IMG/VR virus record: IMGVR_UViG_3300020045_015493
Coordinates: 1 to 42,277 of that record
Length of the DNA: 42,277 nucleotides
Direction: 5' to 3' (one strand)
Source of the DNA: a virus
Lineage: Duplodnaviria; Caudoviricetes
Made by a program: the position numbers and the translations under genes. Below the pieces are notes generated by a model. The model ran no database searches and was not told the DNA's origin. It saw only the letters and a list, made by a program, of their open reading frames with translations. Each line of letters begins with the position of its first letter. Position 1 is the stretch's first letter. This document shows positions 1 through 42,277 of this stretch, in pieces.

Positions 1-121
1 GCCTACAACGTCAAATGTAACCGAAGTAGCGGAATTAATATAGATGAATTATCAATTTACACTAAAAATTATAAAAATGGAAACACTTAAATTACAGCGA
101 GTAACCCGCTATTTTGGTTAC
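1..121. repeat. Terminal direct repeat (circular assembly overlap), identical to 42157-42277
   Basis: 121 nt GCCTACAAC...TTTTGGTTAC at both ends; 115 nt of it (7-121) also recur at 40165-40279. Confidence 0.95.
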
Positions 122-316
122 CGTCCCGCAGGTATGGAATCGGTTTTTTACGGATTTGAAACGATAAAATAAAATAATATTATGAATAAAATTGAGAAGG
201 CAATATTAACAGAACTTAATGAATGGGATTTATCTTGTTCTGAAGAACCAACCTTGAAAATAGAACTTGCTAAGGTATTGGGAAGAGTAGTAAAAAACTG
301 TTCTATACCTGCTGTT
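122..316 (+). repeat. attC-like hairpin site with a long coding loop; the AA of its AAC is missing
   Basis: GCAGGTATGGAATCGGTTTTTTAC (128-151) pairs with GTAAAAAACTGTTCTATACCTGC (290-312), followed by T-GTT at 314. Confidence 0.75.
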
Positions 317-415
317 ATAAAATCGGTTTGCGAACATGATTACCAGAAGGTTACAAAGTATGGTTATAAGTGTAAGAAATGTGGTAAGACAGGATTCTCC
401 CCAATACACGGGTGA
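182..415 (+). CDS. Cassette protein with a C-terminal Zn-ribbon-like module (CEH...CKKC); starts inside the hairpin loop
   Basis: ORF track; GTT at 314 is the in-frame Val of IPAV. Confidence 0.7.
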   Translation: MNKIEKAILTELNEWDLSCSEEPTLKIELAKVLGRVVKNCSIPAVIKSVCEHDYQKVTKYGYKCKKCGKTGFSPIHG

Positions 416-429
416 GCAAACTGTTTTAT

Positions 430-555
430 AACGTTCCGCAAATAAAACCAGTAAAAGATATGAAAGAAGAAATATTAAGCATTGCCAGCGACCTTAGAGA
501 AGGACACATCACTTCAAATGAAGCCAAACGCCTTTTATTTGTTTTATTTGGTGTT
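430..555 (+). repeat. attC-like hairpin site
   Basis: AAC 430-432; CAAATAAAACCAGTAAAAG (439-457) pairs with CTTTTATTTGTTTTATTTG (532-550); GTT 553. Confidence 0.8.
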
Positions 556-711
556 GGCAAATCGTTGCCGATTGGTGACGTAGAGATTTTATTAAAAGGA
601 CTTGAACATATTGGCAAATGGGGCGATGAAGAAGAAGAACGATGGGATGATCCAGGCGATTGTGCAATGGATACACTTACTCAATATCGTTATTCAATGA
701 GTATTCGTTAG
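460..711 (+). CDS. Hypothetical cassette protein; starts inside the hairpin loop
   Basis: ORF 412-711 with probable ATG at 460 (MKEEILS...); reads through GTT 553 in frame. Confidence 0.7.
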   Translation: MKEEILSIASDLREGHITSNEAKRLLFVLFGVGKSLPIGDVEILLKGLEHIGKWGDEEEERWDDPGDCAMDTLTQYRYSMSIR

Positions 712-723
712 GCAATGTTTGCC

Positions 724-806
724 AACGGCCGGGGCTAAACGCAGCCCTTTGTAGAATTTAATGTTAAACCACTGTCGCTGATCAGGGTTGCGTTTTAGCC
801 CTTGTT
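724..806 (+). repeat. attC-like hairpin site (short, 83 nt)
   Basis: AAC 724-726; GGGCTAAACGCAGCCCT pairs with AGGGTTGCGTTTTAGCCC (one bulged T); GTT 804. Confidence 0.85.
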
Positions 807-829
807 ACCGCCAGTTAATTTAAAAATCA

Positions 830-1015
830 ATGGGAGATTTATTAAGACAGTATAAAGGAAATCAGTCAAATTACGACTGCATTAAAAACGAAGTTCAAAA
901 TTTACTCGATGAACTTGAAAATGTAAATCGACTAAAAGTTAATAATGAATTTAGCGAGGAAGTTCTTAATCATATAAAAGAAATTAGACTGTCAATTATT
1001 TCTATTTCTGATTAA
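830..1015 (+). CDS. Hypothetical cassette protein
   Basis: 61-aa ORF bracketed by GTTACCGCCAGTTAAT / ATTAATTGGCGGTAAC. Confidence 0.75.
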   Translation: MGDLLRQYKGNQSNYDCIKNEVQNLLDELENVNRLKVNNEFSEEVLNHIKEIRLSIISISD

Positions 1016-1061
1016 TTGGCGGTAACTCGTTACTACACGCTATAAAATCATATCAAAAAAC

Positions 1062-1256
1062 ATGAAACCAATTGATTTTCAATTTACTTACAAAAAACAA
1101 ATTGGATTTACAGAAATTCAGCACAAAACATTGATAAAACTGGAAGGTTACAATGTAAATGTTTGCCAATTCATCAGGGATGCCATAAAAGAAAAAATTC
1201 AACGTGAATGGAAACAAATTAAAGAGTCTAAAATTAAAGAATACTGCCCATTTTAA
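1062..1256 (+). CDS. Small putative DNA-binding protein (ribbon-helix-helix-like)
   Basis: 64 aa; strand-helix-helix pattern with NVCQFIRDAIKEKI. Confidence 0.55.
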   Translation: MKPIDFQFTYKKQIGFTEIQHKTLIKLEGYNVNVCQFIRDAIKEKIQREWKQIKESKIKEYCPF

Positions 1257-2006: not shown

Positions 2007-2043
2007 GTTTCAATCCTTGTTTTGATGGATGGTAGTTTCAGAG
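2007..2043 (-). CRISPR. Solitary CRISPR-repeat-like unit (37 bp)
   Basis: Minus strand reads CTCTGAAACTACCATCCATCAAAACAAGGATTGAAAC: ATTGAAAC 3' end and an ATCC/GGAT hairpin; intergenic; no cas genes seen. Confidence 0.65.
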
Positions 2044-4731: not shown

Positions 4732-5553
4732 ATGAATGAATTAAAACCACTTGGGGAAATCCCCAAAAAAGAATCTGAAAAAGTTCAAGAAGTAAAACCG
4801 ACAACAGAGGACGTTAAAAGAGCGGTCGAAAAACAGGTAAAAGAAGTTTGTAATCCTGAAAAACCTGAAAGTTTCAGCCTGTTGCGAAAAATAAACGGGG
4901 AATTGTTTTTTGAACTTGAATTTTCAACTGGCAAATTGGTTGTTTCGGAATCAAAATGCAACCAGCTAATTCCTGAATTTAAAAAAATGACACCGGAGCA
5001 AAAAGAAACATTTTTAATGCAAGCCGCAATTTTCGGAGCAAATCCATTTAGTGTACCTCCAGAAATTTACCCGCTTCCATTTGAATCGAATGGAGTAACA
5101 ATTATCGCCCCGGTGATTTCGGCAAAAAAGTACATTAATAAAGGGATGGAAAATCCGCAATTTGATGGAATGAAATCAGGGGTTGTGATCGAAAAACAGG
5201 ATGGCAGTTTTGATTTTCGCAGAGGCCAAGTTTTCGGGAAAACAGAAATTTTGAAAGGCGGTTGGGCAGAGGTTTTTATCAAAGGATTGAGGGAACCGAT
5301 TTTTAGGAGCGTAAATATCGAGGAGTTCCAAATGCGAAAAAAAGATGGGACACTTAATAAATTTTGGAACGAAACATCTGGAAAGCCAGCTTTAATGATT
5401 GAAAAAGTCGCTCAAAAGCAAGCGATGGAGATAGCGATGCAAATGCCAAAAACCTACATTGCAGAAGAACTCCCGGTCATCGACATTGAACACGAAGATT
5501 TGACAAATCAAAAAGCCATTCCGGCAAACAACGATGAATTTTTTAATAAGTAA
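4732..5553 (+). CDS. bet: RecT/Bet-family single-strand annealing protein
   Basis: Motifs NPF..EIY, FDGMKSGVV, GGWAEV and W..KPALMIEKVA; located between the SbcC-like and MBL genes. Confidence 0.85.
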   Translation: MNELKPLGEIPKKESEKVQEVKPTTEDVKRAVEKQVKEVCNPEKPESFSLLRKINGELFFELEFSTGKLVVSESKCNQLIPEFKKMTPEQKETFLMQAAIFGANPFSVPPEIYPLPFESNGVTIIAPVISAKKYINKGMENPQFDGMKSGVVIEKQDGSFDFRRGQVFGKTEILKGGWAEVFIKGLREPIFRSVNIEEFQMRKKDGTLNKFWNETSGKPALMIEKVAQKQAMEIAMQMPKTYIAEELPVIDIEHEDLTNQKAIPANNDEFFNK

Positions 5554-36824: not shown

Positions 36825-36857
36825 CAAATTTAATCTATTTTTTTAAAAAATTACAAA
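36825..36857 (-). promoter_or_regulatory. Bacteroidota promoter TTTG-N21-TAAATTTG, probably leaderless
   Basis: CAAATTTA at 36825-36832 and CAAA at 36854-36857; -7 box ends 4 nt before the ATG. Confidence 0.55.
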
Positions 36858-36859
36858 AA

Positions 36860-37270
36860 ATTTTAAACATCAATCAAAATAAATGATTTTTAAATTACCT
36901 CACTGTTTTTTAATTTTACCGATCACTTTTTTAATATTTCCTCTTATATTTTATATTTTATATTTATAATATATTATATATCAATAAGTTATATATATAA
37001 ATCGGTAAAAAAATAATAGGTATTATTAATAGAAAAAAAATAAAAATATATACATTAATGGAAAAATTTTTTCCCTTTTTACCGTTTTGGCTTAATTTGC
37101 TGAATTTCAATATTTTGTTGTCGGTAAAAAATATTTTAAAATCGGTAAAAATTTGGATTTTTACCGGGTGTTTTTGGTGTTGTGTGTTTTTTAACGGTAC
37201 TACTATTAATATAATGTAAAAAATAGGTGTTTTTTACCCGGTTTGGTTAAAAATTTTTACCGATAAAAAA
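36860..37270. other. Putative replication origin: AT-rich region with TTTTACCG iterons
   Basis: TTTTACCG/CGGTAAAA at ~36914, 37002, 37076, 37121, 37142, 37158 and 37254, plus a variant at 37231; non-coding, between divergent operons. Confidence 0.65.
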
Positions 37271-37361
37271 TTAGCCACAATGATTACGGGCGAAAATATG
37301 CAGATAGAACTGTACTGCTGCAATATATTTTTTAAATATTTAAAAAATATATTGAAATATG

Positions 37362-37974: not shown

Positions 37975-38155
37975 AGAACTCAAAAAAGAACTTGATTTAA
38001 CCAATAAAGACATAGCCGGGTTCTTTGGCTTGTCGCCTACTGTGTACGCAAATTCAAGCGCAAAAACACGTTATGAAGCTGTACTCTGTCAATTTTTAAA
38101 ATATGTTAAAAAGAAACTCAATGTAGAAGAACAGAGCGACTTAAATAACCCATAA
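37964..38155 (+). CDS. Small HTH-like protein
   Basis: IKELKKELDLTNKDIAGFFGLS; stop codon lies in the TAAC of the first array site. Confidence 0.6.
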   Translation: MTIKELKKELDLTNKDIAGFFGLSPTVYANSSAKTRYEAVLCQFLKYVKKKLNVEEQSDLNNP

Positions 38156-38276
38156 CGGTCGCAAATACCAGCAGTTAGGGATAAAAAGCTCTGACCTGTC
38201 GAGCTGGCAAAAAGTAACAAAAGAGCTTTAAACAATGGCAACGCACGAATACCTTAATTGACTGGTATTTGTTGTT
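38154..38276 (+). repeat. attC-like hairpin site (123 nt)
   Basis: AAC-GGTCG-CAAATACCAGCAGTTAGGG pairs with CCTTAATTG(A)CTGGTATTTG-TT-GTT. Confidence 0.85.
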
Positions 38277-38300
38277 AACGCCAGTTATTTGTCAATCAAA

Positions 38301-38864
38301 ATGCAAACAGTGACTTTTAAGATGAACGGACTTACCTATAATAATTATAGGTTAATTAGAAATTTAGACGAATACTCTGAATTTTTAAAAGAACTAAACA
38401 ATAAATTCACTTTATCTGATGCTGAAATAAAAGATAGGCATGAAAGAAAATACATAGGACATGATTCAACACTCCTTACTTCTATTGCCGAATTTTTCAG
38501 TATAAACGACATTGAGCCATTATCTTTAGATGAAATATTATTGCGATCTAAAATACTTTATGGACGAGTATTATCAGACCAGCTAAAAGATATTTGCAAT
38601 GGTTGCAGTTTAGCCATAAACGATAAAGGTGGTTATTTCCCAATAAAAATTACCGACCATATTTATATAGTATCATCTAATGATATAAAAGAATTTACCG
38701 TGAAAGACATTAAAATATCAAGATGGGCGAATGGACGGCATTTTTACGCTAAGGTCGGGAACATTGATGTTGTCGATAGCGATGGAAATGTAAAGTGGAA
38801 TACTCACTATGCTGCTAAGAGAGAGTCTAATCGGTTTTTAGAAAAACTAAATAATTCTAAATAA
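38301..38864 (+). CDS. Hypothetical cassette protein
   Basis: ORF 38289-38864; ATG at 38301, 27 nt after GTT 38274. Confidence 0.75.
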   Translation: MQTVTFKMNGLTYNNYRLIRNLDEYSEFLKELNNKFTLSDAEIKDRHERKYIGHDSTLLTSIAEFFSINDIEPLSLDEILLRSKILYGRVLSDQLKDICNGCSLAINDKGGYFPIKITDHIYIVSSNDIKEFTVKDIKISRWANGRHFYAKVGNIDVVDSDGNVKWNTHYAAKRESNRFLEKLNNSK

Positions 38865-38896
38865 AATGGCAGAAACTACCCACAAAACTTTATACA

Positions 38897-39190
38897 ATGA
38901 ACGAAAATTTTAACACAAACGAAACTGACAACAAAGTGATTGATTTTATTAATTATCACGCAGCAAGTTATGTAAATGAATTTATGAACGGTGATTCAAT
39001 AACGAGAGCAAGAATGCAGGAAATTTTAACATCTTTTGGAAAACAATTGCTTGACTGCTATCCGTGCGATGTAAAAGAAACTCTCTACGAGAGTAGTAAC
39101 TGCATTAAACCTGATGTTAGCAAACGTCATCTAATCAAATTATTAAAGATATGGAAGGCAAGCATCCCGAATACCATATTGATGTCGTAA
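38897..39190 (+). CDS. Hypothetical protein reading through a degenerate site (CIKPDV|SKR)
   Basis: GTT at 39116 is an in-frame Val. Confidence 0.65.
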   Translation: MNENFNTNETDNKVIDFINYHAASYVNEFMNGDSITRARMQEILTSFGKQLLDCYPCDVKETLYESSNCIKPDVSKRHLIKLLKIWKASIPNTILMS

Positions 39191-39251
39191 AAAGTTATCT
39201 CGATTATGCGTTGTTAGTGCCAGTATTTTGTTGAATATTAATAATTTATAT

Positions 39252-39584
39252 ATGAAAAAGCAAAAATTATACTTTAGTGATTTCGATGAAGAAAGAGCTT
39301 ATACGCTTGATTACATCATTGATGAAATGAAAGAAAGAGAACTTACAGAATGTGAAGTAGCTGTTGCAACCAGAGACACTGATAAAAGTTATTTCTTTTG
39401 CAGAGCAGTACAGGAAGTTTGCGTTAAACCACCAGAAGGAGAACCATGTGGAAAAGAATGTTGTGACTACGAACCAAGAAATGGGAAGAATGGGTGCTGC
39501 AAATTCAGAGGTTTTTGTTATGAGCCATCTGATCGAAAATTTATTCTTAAAATTAATGGAAAACTTTCGCTATTGCCGTTTTAA
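39252..39584 (+). CDS. Cys-rich hypothetical cassette protein
   Basis: ORF 39228-39584 with probable ATG at 39252; 9 Cys; follows GTTAGTGCCAGT at 39213. Confidence 0.75.
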   Translation: MKKQKLYFSDFDEERAYTLDYIIDEMKERELTECEVAVATRDTDKSYFFCRAVQEVCVKPPEGEPCGKECCDYEPRNGKNGCCKFRGFCYEPSDRKFILKINGKLSLLPF

Positions 39585-39667
39585 TGGGGCTTAACGATTT
39601 GTATATAAGCCGTATTTATTTTATTATCAGTTATAAGTAAAATAATTTAAAAATAAACAGTAAATAG

Positions 39668-39698
39668 TTTGTAAATACAAAGTAAATAACTATTTTTG
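39668..39698 (+). promoter_or_regulatory. Bacteroidota promoter TTTG-N19-TATTTTTG inside the array
   Basis: Exact -33/-7 consensus, 34 nt upstream of ORF 39733. Confidence 0.75.
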
Positions 39699-39732
39699 TT
39701 GAGCAATAATGCAATAACTTATTTTTTATATT

Positions 39733-40005
39733 ATGAAAACTGATATTATTAAATTTTGCTTGTTTGACAGAAAGCCAAACGCAAAAGAACTGTACTACAA
39801 CGAAGATGGTATGATGTATATGTGCGATTCTCCTGAAAAAAATAATGAAATTGGATGGCCAGGCCGAAAGATATACACAATTATACCAACATTAGAAAAA
39901 ACAAATCTTTCCATTGAAGAAATGAAAGATTTGACTGCTTTTGTTTGGAAAAATAAAGTGAAAGACGGAACTGTAATTAATATTAAACACAGTTTTGAAG
40001 TATGA
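39733..40005 (+). CDS. Hypothetical protein
   Basis: 90-aa ORF after the promoter. Confidence 0.75.
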   Translation: MKTDIIKFCLFDRKPNAKELYYNEDGMMYMCDSPEKNNEIGWPGRKIYTIIPTLEKTNLSIEEMKDLTAFVWKNKVKDGTVINIKHSFEV

Positions 40006-40154
40006 AAACTAAAAAAGTGACAATAAGCCTTACAGAAGAACAGCAACAACAGGCTAAAGAGATAAGCAAAGAACTACTTGGTAATCAAAACATATCTGGG
40101 TTATTTGCTTTTTGGATAAATCAACACCTAAAGAAACGCTCGAAGGCTTCTTAA
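40002..40154 (+). CDS. 50-aa ribbon-helix-helix-like protein
   Basis: MKTKKVTISLTEEQQQQAKEISKELLGNQNISGLFAFWI; ATGA-coupled; below the ORF-track cutoff. Confidence 0.6.
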   Translation: MKTKKVTISLTEEQQQQAKEISKELLGNQNISGLFAFWINQHLKKRSKAS

Positions 40155-40164
40155 TATGGTGGCT

Positions 40165-40287
40165 AACGTCAAATGTAACCGAAGTAGCGGAATTAATATA
40201 GATGAATTATCAATTTACACTAAAAATTATAAAAATGGAAACACTTAAATTACAGCGAGTAACCCGCTATTTTGGTTACATATTGTT
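40165..40287 (+). repeat. attC-like hairpin site (123 nt); first 115 nt duplicated at 42163-42277 / 7-121
   Basis: ATGTAACCGAAGTAGCGG pairs with CCGCTATTTTGGTTACAT; GTT at 40285. Confidence 0.85.
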
Positions 40288-40651
40288 AGCTACCGTGCTA
40301 TTTTCATCTTGCTTAAAAAGAGTGGCTGAATTGAAGCACGAAAAAGGTATCGTAGTTGCAAAACAATATCAAGGAGAAATAAACACAACTGCAACTGGGG
40401 TTGGAATGTCAACATCTGGAAATATGGTTGCAACAACTCATTCCATACATGAAGATGCCAAATTTAACGTAGTGTTTAAATGTGAACATGGAGTTATATT
40501 CACTATAAACAGTGATGAAGTTTACCTTAAAGTAAAAGAAGGCGATACTGTTACAATTGATTATTATGAAATGCTAAATAAAAAAGGTGAGGTAAAGGAT
40601 TTCGATTTTATTGATGCTAATAAATGCACGAAGGCTGCCCAATCATGGTAG
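40202..40651 (+). CDS. Putative lipoprotein whose signal peptide starts inside the hairpin
   Basis: METLKLQRVTRYFGYILLATVLFSS|C lipobox-like (second ATG likely); body flanked by GTTAGCTACCGTG / CATGGTAGCTAAC. Confidence 0.7.
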   Translation: MNYQFTLKIIKMETLKLQRVTRYFGYILLATVLFSSCLKRVAELKHEKGIVVAKQYQGEINTTATGVGMSTSGNMVATTHSIHEDAKFNVVFKCEHGVIFTINSDEVYLKVKEGDTVTIDYYEMLNKKGEVKDFDFIDANKCTKAAQSW

Positions 40652-40653
40652 CT

Positions 40654-40775
40654 AACGGTGAGTGTAACCGCAGTAGCGGATTAAAAAGTAATAACCTATC
40701 AAATTAAACTAACATGAATAAAGAGCAGAAAACTTCGCACCCCACAGAACCCGCTATTGCGGTTGACACTGTGTT
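40654..40775 (+). repeat. attC-like hairpin site (122 nt)
   Basis: GTGTAACCGCAGTAGCGG pairs with CCGCTATTGCGGTT(G)ACAC; GTT at 40773. Confidence 0.85.
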
Positions 40776-41007
40776 AGCACCATTATTTGTTTATGAATTT
40801 CTTTATAATTCGGATTGTTGCGAATGTGCAGCATTGACTATAAGTATTCACAAAACAAAGAAAGGTGCTGAAATGGCAATGGAGTTTCATAAAAACGAAA
40901 AACTAAAAGAGTGGGAAGCGGAATGTAAAAAATATTTATCTTCAAAAGAATATCCATTTGATTTTGACCAATGGTGGGGTGTTCGTGAATGCGAGTTGCT
41001 TCCTTAA
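40714..41007 (+). CDS. Hypothetical cassette protein starting inside the hairpin loop
   Basis: Reads AVDTV|LAP through the site; body flanked by GTTAGCACCATTATT / AATATTAGTGCTAAC. Confidence 0.75.
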   Translation: MNKEQKTSHPTEPAIAVDTVLAPLFVYEFLYNSDCCECAALTISIHKTKKGAEMAMEFHKNEKLKEWEAECKKYLSSKEYPFDFDQWWGVRECELLP

Positions 41008-41017
41008 TATTAGTGCT

Positions 41018-41141
41018 AACGGTTTTGCAGCTATGCAACGGCATGGGGTTAAAAGCACTTCCCTATCAACCGTTGAAAAATTAACTAAGTGCTATAATGT
41101 TGGCTAACCACGTAATCCATGCTGTTGTATGAGGTTCTGTT
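41018..41141 (+). repeat. attC-like hairpin site (124 nt)
   Basis: ATGCAACGGCATGG pairs with CCATGCTGTTGTAT; GTT at 41139. Confidence 0.8.
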
Positions 41142-41164
41142 ATAGCCAGTTAATACTTTAAATC

Positions 41165-41383
41165 ATGATAAAATTAGACACTTACACAGACGAAAATGTA
41201 TTTGAAGAAGCAAAAAAATACATAAAATCGAATTTGAAAACAGGTGATTACTACACAACATCAATGCTTCAAAGAACTTATAGCATTGGTTATAATAAAG
41301 CTTCTCGAATTTTAGAAATGCTAAGTAAAGAAAAAATCATAAAATTTAGTTCTGATAGAGTGAAAGCTCCGATGGTTCTTTAA
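41165..41383 (+). CDS. Stand-alone FtsK gamma (winged-helix) domain protein
   Basis: TTSMLQRTYSIGYNKASRILEMLSKEKII matches the FtsK-gamma consensus S.S.LQR...IGYNRA.R....L...G.V; flanked by GTTATAGCCAGTTAA / TTAATTGGCTATAAC. Confidence 0.8.
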   Translation: MIKLDTYTDENVFEEAKKYIKSNLKTGDYYTTSMLQRTYSIGYNKASRILEMLSKEKIIKFSSDRVKAPMVL

Positions 41384-41391
41384 TTGGCTAT

Positions 41392-41513
41392 AACGTTGGT
41401 GGTATGGTTAGTTGCCGATTGCGGGCTACTTTCCTATCAAATTACAGATAATTACAAGCGGGTGGTAACGCTTAAATTTAGTACTAATACGGCAATTAAC
41501 TATACCACGGGTT
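41392..41513 (+). repeat. attC-like hairpin site (122 nt)
   Basis: GTGGTATGGTTAGTTGCCG pairs with CGGCAATTAACTATACCAC; GTT at 41511. Confidence 0.85.
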
Positions 41514-41540
41514 AACTGCTGGCTTTTAATTAATTATCAA

Positions 41541-41837
41541 ATGACACGAATAGAAATTGAACAAAAAAGAAAAGAAAACTTTGATAAAATCGAAGAACTT
41601 AAAAAGGAAAATATTGAGCTTTATAAACAAGCAATGGTTATATCTGACGAAAAACAATGGTTTACTGAAGAAATTGAATCGCATCCAAAAGCTAAATATC
41701 AAAGAGAACCGAATTATTTAGATGGTAAATTGGTAGGACGCATTCATTGGAATGAGGATTTTAAAGACGAAGATACTGGCAAGTTAATTACCATTGAACG
41801 TTCTCAATTAGTAAAAGTTGACGGTGAGTGGGTTTAA
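41541..41837 (+). CDS. Cassette protein with an RpoB-like WxEDFxDEDTG..IER motif
   Basis: WNEDFKDEDTGKLITIER; flanked by GTTAACTGCTGGCTT / AAGCTTGCAGTTAAC. Confidence 0.7.
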   Translation: MTRIEIEQKRKENFDKIEELKKENIELYKQAMVISDEKQWFTEEIESHPKAKYQREPNYLDGKLVGRIHWNEDFKDEDTGKLITIERSQLVKVDGEWV

Positions 41838-41847
41838 GCTTGCAGTT

Positions 41848-42046
41848 AACGTATGGTGGTATGAGTATGTTTTTTAACCGATAAAATAGAACGAATATGA
41901 AAGCACATGAATTTATAAGAGAAACATTTGATTTAGACAACAGGACAAGTATAAGTGAACTACCTGATTTACCAATTTCATTAATAGTAGAAATGCTTAA
42001 TAATTACAAGGAAGGTAAGGTTAAAAAATTACTTATACCACGTGTT
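41848..42046 (+). repeat. attC-like hairpin site with a long coding loop (199 nt)
   Basis: GTGGTATGAGTATGTTTTTTAACC pairs with GGTTAAAAAATTACTTATACCAC; GTT at 42044. Confidence 0.85.
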
Positions 42047-42154
42047 GTAGGGCGAAGCGAACAGTTAATTTGCCCTCATTGCGGAAAATATAAAAGCCTG
42101 CAAGGTAATGGAATTATGCACCAACTTTGTGAATGTGGAGAACAAGCAAATTAA
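41897..42154 (+). CDS. Cassette protein with a C-terminal Zn ribbon (CPHC...CEC); starts inside the hairpin loop
   Basis: Reads LLIPRV|VGRSEQL; GTT at 42044 is in frame. Confidence 0.75.
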   Translation: MKAHEFIRETFDLDNRTSISELPDLPISLIVEMLNNYKEGKVKKLLIPRVVGRSEQLICPHCGKYKSLQGNGIMHQLCECGEQAN

Positions 42155-42156
42155 TT

Positions 42157-42277
42157 GCCTACAACGTCAAATGTAACCGAAGTAGCGGAATTAATATAGA
42201 TGAATTATCAATTTACACTAAAAATTATAAAAATGGAAACACTTAAATTACAGCGAGTAACCCGCTATTTTGGTTAC
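42157..42277. repeat. Terminal direct repeat (circular overlap with 1-121)
   Basis: Exact match to 1-121. Confidence 0.95.

Follow-up and report, generated by a model that had tools for sequence, protein, structure and literature searches.

The dif site of the Xer system is a conserved 28-bp double-stranded sequence with a XerC-6-XerD layout. Integrons recombine their gene cassettes at attC sites, whose biology, including the crossover at AA|C and the G-T bias on the recombining strand, is described by Escudero 2016 and Nivina 2016. According to the former, an L-box event was seen once in 607 in a forced assay, and the extrahelical bases together with the I2 helix were argued to block L-box cleavage. 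Integrase-less clusters (CALINs) in phages, including Polaribacter phage P12002L, have been reported and treated as attC (Qi et al. 2023, PMC9892861). In that study P12002L_attC1 was the sole one of six sites which IntI1 did not integrate. Beyond Qi 2023, we found no description of the hairpin-cassette system presented here, in a literature coverage that lies mostly outside subscription journals.

In this study, we describe an array of hairpin-bounded gene cassettes in a phage record of 42,277 nt, referred to at its full length as the window. Comparison with other genomes makes it probable (about 0.8) that the array consists of cassettes fixed at AAC triplets and likely moved by a Xer-like recombinase, supplied in trans and acting on the folded gene-sense strand.

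A terminal repeat of 121 nt closes the record into a 42,156-bp circle. The initial annotation took the genome to be complete; this is likely but uncertain, because CheckV gives a completeness of 78% and the terminal repeat is itself a duplicated hairpin. A strict scanner, whose background was one match summed over ten block-shuffled genomes, detected eight intact hairpin sites in the whole window, all on the + strand (38154, 40165, 40654, 41018, 41392, 41848, 430 and 724), and none on the - strand. Six of the eight are 122-126 nt long, the remaining two 83 and 199 nt. Together with broken sites they make up the array, the left third of which is decayed. About 12 sites of the form AAC-hairpin-GTT had been proposed. 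The array is real, but the copy at 42163/7, identical to the 40165 hairpin over 115 nt, lacks GTT, the site at 122 lacks AAC, and the supposed degenerate sites within 38874-39215 are by eye half-sites instead, with further half-sites at 39593 and 1024. The features of the array and its right-hand neighbour are:

38154..38276, +, intact hairpin site found by the scanner, leftmost in the array
38274..38876, +, gene segment with a 187-aa ORF (38301-38864) and a degenerate right arm, judged by eye
38874..39215, +, broken region by eye, not scored intact: the left arm is gone near 38874, 39116 and 39213 are right half-sites, and ORF 38897-39190 reads through
39213..39595, +, gene segment with a 110-aa ORF (39252-39584); by comparison, the L020 homologue starts exactly at the 39213 GTT
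39593..39615, +, left half-site without right arm
40167..40655, +, cassette: hairpin 40165-40287 and ORF 40202/40235-40651, starting within the hairpin, with a putative leader that is lipoprotein-like by its motif
40656..41019, +, cassette: hairpin 40654-40775 and ORF 40714-41007, starting within the hairpin
41020..41393, +, cassette: hairpin 41018-41141 and a stand-alone FtsK-gamma-domain gene, 41165-41383 (PF09397, E 6.6e-12, above cut-off)
41394..41849, +, cassette: hairpin 41392-41513 and a 98-aa ORF, 41541-41837
41850..42164, +, cassette: ORF 41897-42154, which starts within the long hairpin 41848-42046
42163..42277, +, copy of the 40165 hairpin without a gene (equal to window 7-121), whose last bases are the inner triplet TAC
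116..127, +, L-box-type junction TAC|C where the truncated hairpin meets the cassette that follows
122..431, +, cassette: long hairpin 122-316 without AA (C only) and ORF 182-415
432..725, +, cassette: hairpin 430-555, with ORF 460-711 starting within it
726..1025, +, cassette: short hairpin 724-806 and ORF 830-1015; last in the array and likely the newest
1024..1045, +, terminal site without hairpin (AAC, 6 nt, NTA), attI-like
1062..1256, +, 64-aa gene, ribbon-helix-helix-like by inspection (weak Pfam match, E 0.037)

As the initial annotation held, the arms of each segment match their own partner. In the 40285-1026 block the own partner has the top score in its row for 8/8 gene-end arms, with 9, 9, 10, 9, 5, 8, 7 and 10 of 11 positions matching, and over 108 segments own arms match on average at 7.4/11 positions vs 4.1/11 for random partners. 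The pairing claimed for arms of 13-18 bp is real, but it ends near position 15 from GTT rather than at 18, and position 11 is always taken by a G-T mispair. R boxes of the form RYYYAAC / GTTRRRY, complementary within a single cassette, are present, and in folding the circle-form junction is more stable than the linear one for 6/7 window sites. The spacers, of 7-10 nt and 5 nt, do depart from canonical attC as had been suggested, the latter having spacers of about 5 nt with extrahelical bases. Among 146 hairpins, a set not selected by the search pattern, G-T stands at stem position 10 in 131, elsewhere in the stem G-T occurs 111 times vs 4 for A-C, and 126 have no bulge; four of the eight intact window sites have one bulge each (partly by eye). 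G-T at stem position 5 was dropped as a feature, since it is forced by the search pattern. The longest ORF lies on the strand that integrons call bottom in 106/108 viral gene segments and begins inside the hairpin in 48/106.

No tyrosine recombinase was found in the record, in agreement with the earlier reading, which had proposed a host IntI or Xer-like enzyme acting in trans; trans supply and Xer-likeness are supported, IntI is not. An attI-like site (1024) marks the array end of this phage, and the gene at 1062..1256 occupies the position of the recombinase in complete systems. Elsewhere, a recombinase is present in 8/152 loci and in 8/90 of the hairpin-bearing loci of at least 4 kb, most sampled arrays being without one in the DNA examined. 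It follows a terminal AAC site in 8/8 loci having one; the hairpins of these loci all lie upstream, on the same strand, and the link of the enzyme to the array is positional. Three array-linked recombinases were scored: they reach 145-158 bits vs a TIGR02249 cut-off of 265 and lie far under the XerC and XerD cut-offs. The recombinase of L049 can be aligned over its full length with XerA and XerD, whereas in the region of the insertion it has about 48 residues fewer than IntI4. A Chryseobacterium plasmid carries the recombinase, the terminal site and three hairpins, and in two bacterial plasmids gene orientation is canonical (integron-like).

The sites might alternatively be recombined by the housekeeping XerCD of the host, perhaps activated by the stand-alone FtsK-gamma cassette. 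The Xer-sized arms would fit, as would a FtsK-gamma-only gene within the array, the activation of XerCD-dif by isolated gamma (Grainge 2011), and the fact that most phage arrays have no enzyme of their own. However, FtsK-gamma is one among many cassettes, and all eight loci that have a recombinase place a dedicated one at the terminal site, with scores far under the XerC and XerD cut-offs; we regard host XerCD as very improbable. As in Xer/dif and pdif, the enzyme fold is Xer-like, the arms measure 11-12 nt and the overlap would be 6 nt, but hairpins of 83-199 nt, variable self-complementary arms, covarying stems and a dedicated enzyme beside the array set the system apart.

Our preferred reading is a Xer-like tyrosine recombinase supplied in trans, which would excise and insert cassettes on the folded gene-sense strand. 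Each site would offer two near-symmetric binding arms of 11-12 nt with the G-T mispair at equal register, the outer arm would be fully paired solely in the excised circle, and the main cut would fall at AA|C. New cassettes would enter at the terminal site 1024, distant from the upstream phage promoter, and many cassettes appear to supply their own start codon within the hairpin. With no IntI insertion in the enzyme and no extrahelical bases in most sites, control may be looser; the inner (L) box would then sometimes be cut, giving the 121|122 junction, and hairpins would be re-paired at GTT.

Comparison between phages shows the apparent mobile unit to be C-hairpin-GTT-gene-AA with the crossover at the left AA|C, the C moving with the cassette. 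The earlier equation of the array with the known footprint of integron cassettes is not supported: the unit is a hairpin plus the following gene, with a left AAC crossover and a mirrored strand. In a set of 250 unique hairpins for which flanks were available, pairs with an identity of 80% or more have only the downstream flank in common in 53 cases, only the upstream flank in 0, both in 1 and neither in 207, counts that are not independent of one another; with neither flank common to 207 pairs, the linkage of hairpin and gene is less than strict. Across 13 independent families, identity rises from 0.15-0.38 at positions -4 to -2 to a full 1.0 at and beyond AAC. Three gene-end pairs end at AACG, and the homologues of cassette 40654 in L011 and L012 have both boundaries at AAC triplets. 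Breakpoints at the triplets in other phages support the view, already put forward in the initial annotation, that the cassettes are individually mobile. The comparison which it recommended, made here with other phages, yielded breakpoints at the triplets, but no syntenic relative showing gain, loss or reordering in this lineage was found.

Such a pattern could also arise by homologous recombination through common hairpin sequence, driven by a phage RecT/Bet-like protein, the hairpins being RNA leaders or regulatory elements. The phage does encode a RecT/Bet-like protein (4732-5553), the hairpins group into families common to several phages, nearly half of the longest ORFs begin inside a hairpin, gene-sense G-T pairs would be G-U in mRNA, fitting an mRNA structure, and some cargo swaps lie within genes (L032, L101). 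Against this, breakpoints fall at AA|C even between unlike hairpins, gene-end arms pair over hundreds of bases with their own partner only, the zero-overlap TAN|C junction recurs in a single register, and no Rfam family matches the sites, none reaching gathering score anywhere in the array. We regard homologous recombination, too, as very improbable.

At junction 121|122, the inner (L-box) triplet of one hairpin is joined to the C of the next. The L-box register was predicted beforehand from the conserved G-T mispair and then searched in other phages. The pattern TAN|CG was found at 41 loci, 13 of them with an intact second hairpin (8 distinct junctions); in three distinct phage junctions besides that of the window the first stem is complete and stops at TAN, and a shifted-register control gave 0/118 (scan of 48/64 collection parts). 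The L-box reading is based on these four distinct junctions and would class them as products of inner-box cleavage, that of the window being read from the assembled sequence, where it borders the terminal repeat. Five of the eight distinct TAN|C junctions were not counted as L-box events, the full first stem being missing, nor were the truncated-hairpin candidates L041 and L054. Microhomology deletion was rejected for 121|122: it needs a 10-nt spacer beginning with C, which occurs in 1/260 hairpins, and there were 0 matches in the shifted register. Since other phages have the same junction type, a pure assembly artefact is unlikely. It is this class of L-box-type junctions that is new here.

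Hairpins are moreover joined to different genes exactly at GTT, which produces in-frame protein fusions. The hairpin at 41392 recurs in L027 with 95% identity and different genes on either side. L-box exchange was rejected as the source of these swaps, since each hairpin retains its 5-nt spacer and identity falls only past GTT(A). We tentatively consider, with more doubt than belief, that the recombinase never acquired the IntI insertion and represents a living intermediate between Xer and integron integrases. Folded sites would be cut by it at AA|C in the gene strand, at G|TT by way of the opposite strand and, in the L box, at TAN|, and hairpin modules (start codon plus N-terminal leader) would be swapped apart from gene bodies, making new proteins by in-frame fusion at GTT. 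If true, this three-cut, two-part shuffling would supply a mechanism for the birth of new cassettes.

Compared with integrons, the array likewise has one-gene cassettes in tandem, folded single-strand sites with AAC/GTT ends and own-end complementarity, a crossover that is placed by comparison at AA|C with a G-T bias confined to one strand, a terminal site that lacks a hairpin and adjoins a tyrosine recombinase, and hairpin families of about 123 nt common to many genes. It differs in a recombinase without the IntI insertion (I2), in sites mostly without an extrahelical base and with a fixed G-T mispair in both arms, in outer arms of about 15 nt, and in L-box junctions seen in natural genomes. 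In the phages, the recombining strand is also the gene strand, and each gene comes after its own hairpin and often starts inside it, whereas the integron gene precedes its attC; the phage genes point toward the terminal site, whereas the integron promoter Pc expresses the newest cassette. As a whole, the array is integron-like in its working, yet it falls outside both IntI and attC. By our own reading of Table S3, P12002L_attC1 has the geometry of this array, and the scanner gives ten matches in P12002L (one doubtful), whereas two sites were tested in PMC9892861. Also very improbable is an ordinary CALIN, whose canonical attC cassettes would come from an integron of the host and be served by the IntI of that host: AAC/GTT ends, own-arm complementarity, the AA|C crossover and the G-T bias do match attC biology as given by Escudero 2016 and Nivina 2016, and phage CALINs have been published (Qi 2023), but the spacers, the mostly absent extrahelical base, the genes on the opposite strand, the associated enzyme without the IntI insertion, the failure of IntI1 to integrate a site of the same geometry and the rarity of IntI integrons in Bacteroidetes (Neron 2022) all speak against it.

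These results suggest that Bacteroidota plasmids and phages, the latter likely of Bacteroidota too, contain a second and widespread integron-like system of gene capture, which work centred on IntI has filed as ordinary attC or missed. With I2 and extrahelical bases mostly absent and L-box-type junctions in natural genomes, the path from Xer to IntI becomes testable with a natural enzyme. The precise change of partners between hairpins and genes at GTT, and the in-frame fusions that it gives, offer a handle on cassette birth and on the diversification of phage accessory genes.

The host of the phage is probably a member of the Bacteroidota, as judged from the hairpin site family, because the hints given by a structural protein (Tenacibaculum phage and Rhodobacteraceae phage) are weak. 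No syntenic close relative of the phage was found; 0/5 loci of its terminase relatives carry sites, and none is syntenic with the array. A plasmid search with the array gave two weak matches, and an 18-mer from site 122 had 36 matches in metagenomes, 0 with a hairpin site. In a scan of a genome collection, the match was a phage-like contig inside an unrelated MAG. Among the sequencing runs listed were one DNA run, with a small share, and no RNA run. The DNA run left large parts of 38100-42277 uncovered and contained no circle joints over this region; one related piece in it stops at the 41018 AAC, and another spans a hairpin alone, but we do not count this run as evidence.

The cassette array (38149..42277 together with 1-1033 of the window) is real and works in the manner of an integron, yet it does not agree with integrons when tested for the integron integrase (IntI), for the geometry of the attC site or for gene polarity. 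A site is a hairpin lying between AAC and GTT. A pattern scanner (AAC, 6-11 nt, stem, 5 nt, GTT) detected eight intact sites in the window, every one on the plus strand, and a single match in total over ten shuffled genomes. About 12 sites had been counted before; eight are intact, and other positions were read as follows.

38874-39215, half-sites, sequence read by eye
39593, half-site, sequence read by eye
42163/7, site, not intact, from sequence reading
122, site, not intact, from sequence reading

The claim that arms pair with their own partner holds: for gene segments (GTT to next AAC) in the 40285-1026 block, the own partner was the best arm match in 8/8. The two leftmost gene segments of the array have degenerate arms. 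The array also contains an insert without the look of a cassette (39596-40164), comprising an AT-rich gap and ORFs of 90 and 50 aa; its right end is a cassette-type right arm.

The mobile unit was defined by comparison with homologues of four cassette genes and with 125 loci fetched by site pattern from 24/64 parts of the collection (about 330 stretches estimated); the loci fetched for comparison are designated L. A set of 250 unique hairpins was compared together with 150 nt of flank on each side. Pairs with an identity of 80% or more, which are not independent of each other, had the downstream flank alone in common in 53 cases, the upstream flank alone in 0, both in 1 and neither in 207. In 13 families (one pair each) identity rises from 0.15-0.38 just ahead of the site to 1.0 at AAC, which supports individually mobile cassettes, as initially proposed, with breakpoints at the triplets. 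Therefore, the unit is a hairpin plus the gene after it. Gene-end similarity stops at AACG in three pairs. The window cassette 40654 recurs in L011 and L012, again bounded at AAC; in L013 its gene is present without the hairpin, yet still ends at AAC. The longest ORF lies on the hairpin-then-gene strand in 106/108 segments, a polarity which is the mirror image of that of integrons; two bacterial plasmids have the canonical gene direction. Cassettes beginning with C at sites without AA (L196, L205, L210, L219, L225, L213) are probably secondary-site insertions or AAC point mutants.

A second boundary lies at GTT. In 26/32 hairpin families at least one pair shares the hairpin and carries unrelated genes, with identity of 0.85-1.0 through GTT(A) that falls afterwards; the window hairpins 41392 and 40654 likewise occur with different genes. 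In 48/106 segments the longest ORF begins within the hairpin and continues across GTT, which is translated as valine in 30 of these 48. Actual fusions are found: the 40714 leader is joined to a different body in L019, the 40235 leader to another body in L101, and the 40235 body to another leader in L006. Hairpin right arms at window 40235-40310, L006 3995 and L101 about 915 presumably encode lipoprotein-like signal peptides fused to different bodies. This re-pairing of hairpins and genes could result from a cut in the opposite strand or, equally well, from the creation of cassettes with shared hairpins, as in chromosomal integrons. Window 41392-41850 and L032 have the hairpin and both outer arms in common and different genes between them, which reads as a cargo exchange inside a cassette shell.

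The junction 121|122 concerns the L box, the inner TAN triplet of the hairpin. At 42163 a copy of the 40165 hairpin is identical over 115 nt and ends after the inner TAC, the next base being the C of the following cassette; it was the sole such case among the hairpins collected at that stage. When both arms are aligned by their G-T mispairs, the inner cut is placed after TAN, and 121|122 would therefore be the product expected if a cut at the L box were joined to one at AA|C. With this prediction set beforehand, TAN|CG ahead of a second hairpin was searched for and gave 41 loci, with the second hairpin intact in 13 (8 distinct junctions). In three distinct junctions (L193; L202/L229; L213/L222/L226) the first stem is complete and ends at TAN; another junction retains a right-arm remnant, and four without a first hairpin were left out of the count. 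In the one-base-shifted register control (48/64 parts scanned; 119 loci returned, 118 analysed) no second hairpin was intact. The TAN|C junction thus recurs in other phages, and the two scans also show that the cassette always keeps its C. L-box cleavage would account for the origin of these junctions, including 121|122 as assembled. For integrons, Escudero 2016 (PMC4792948, accessible text) found L-box recombination of attC at 1 in 607 under forced assay conditions, with extrahelical bases and the I2 domain together blocking it.

The stems covary between hairpins. In a set not chosen by search pattern, a G-T mispair occupies stem position 10 in 131/146 hairpins and a bulge is absent in 126/146. 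In the outer arms this mispair has its counterpart at position 11 (left arm G in 82/108, right arm T in 107/108). In attC, G-T richness marks the recombining strand (Nivina 2016, PMC5027507, accessible text), which agrees with a crossover of the phage sites on the gene-sense strand. G-T pairs on that strand would be stable in mRNA too. We infer that the folded single strand is the substrate of recombination.

Neither a Pfam profile nor a family enzyme used as query detected a tyrosine recombinase in the window, as the initial annotation had it. Such an enzyme is encoded in 8/152 loci; two of these, L031 and L051, seem to be the same phage. In 8/8 it starts within ~130 nt of a hairpin-less, attI-like terminal site (AAC, 6 nt, NTA), and all hairpins lie upstream of this site. 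The window array ends at the same site form, at 1024, and a 64-aa gene comes next. This gene (1062-1256) is small and ribbon-helix-helix-like, with homologues after the terminal site in four other phages (L050, L078, L085, L103); in these five recombinase-less arrays it resembles a conserved platform module. By position, the array-linked enzyme is likely to act on these sites, and such an enzyme would presumably serve the window's array, supplied in trans. The three array-linked enzymes that were scanned missed the cut-offs for integron integrase, XerC and XerD. With XerA and XerD the L049 enzyme aligns in one piece, with IntI4 in two, being ~48 residues shorter between them; among 7,999 candidates scored, at least 3,256 homologues reached E 1e-60 or better. 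Homologues of the array recombinase with 48% identity occur on many Acinetobacter plasmids, and one, on another plasmid, is annotated tnpF; such genes may lie near tet(X) genes. Cassette 41165-41383 (+) encodes an FtsK gamma domain only. Since the gamma domain on its own is an activator of XerCD in E. coli (PMC3130261, accessible text), this stand-alone cassette might modulate host Xer recombination.

Phage CALINs (attC clusters without integrase) are described in the accessible text of Qi et al. 2023 (PMC9892861), where integration by IntI1 was verified for five of six sites, the exception being P12002L_attC1; by sequence reading, this last site has the present phage geometry. Integrons are very few in Bacteroidetes according to the accessible text of Neron 2022 (PMC9024848), and that of Ghaly 2021 (PMC8618304) contains nothing on this site family. 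No description of this cassette system was found in the literature searched, most subscription papers being outside its scope. The site family occurs in Polaribacter phage P12002L and in Chryseobacterium and Emticicia plasmids, which points to a Bacteroidota host. P12002L (L189, NC_028924) has ten matches to the family, 8 of them co-oriented with early genes, and offers a cultured model for experiments on these sites.

As a virus record, the window carries direct terminal repeats (42,156 bp once the 121-nt repeat is removed; CheckV completeness 78%). Its minus strand encodes terminase, portal, protease and tail genes, its plus strand a RecT/Bet-like gene. Between divergent gene blocks, at a switch in GC skew, 36840-37280 is AT-rich with nested inverted repeats, possibly an origin or control region. 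A single intergenic CRISPR direct repeat lies at 2007-2043 (-) (Rfam CRISPR-DR7, 40.8 bits), without another Rfam match; it is a possible solitary-repeat RNA anti-CRISPR (Racr) of the kind described in the accessible text of PMC10651486.
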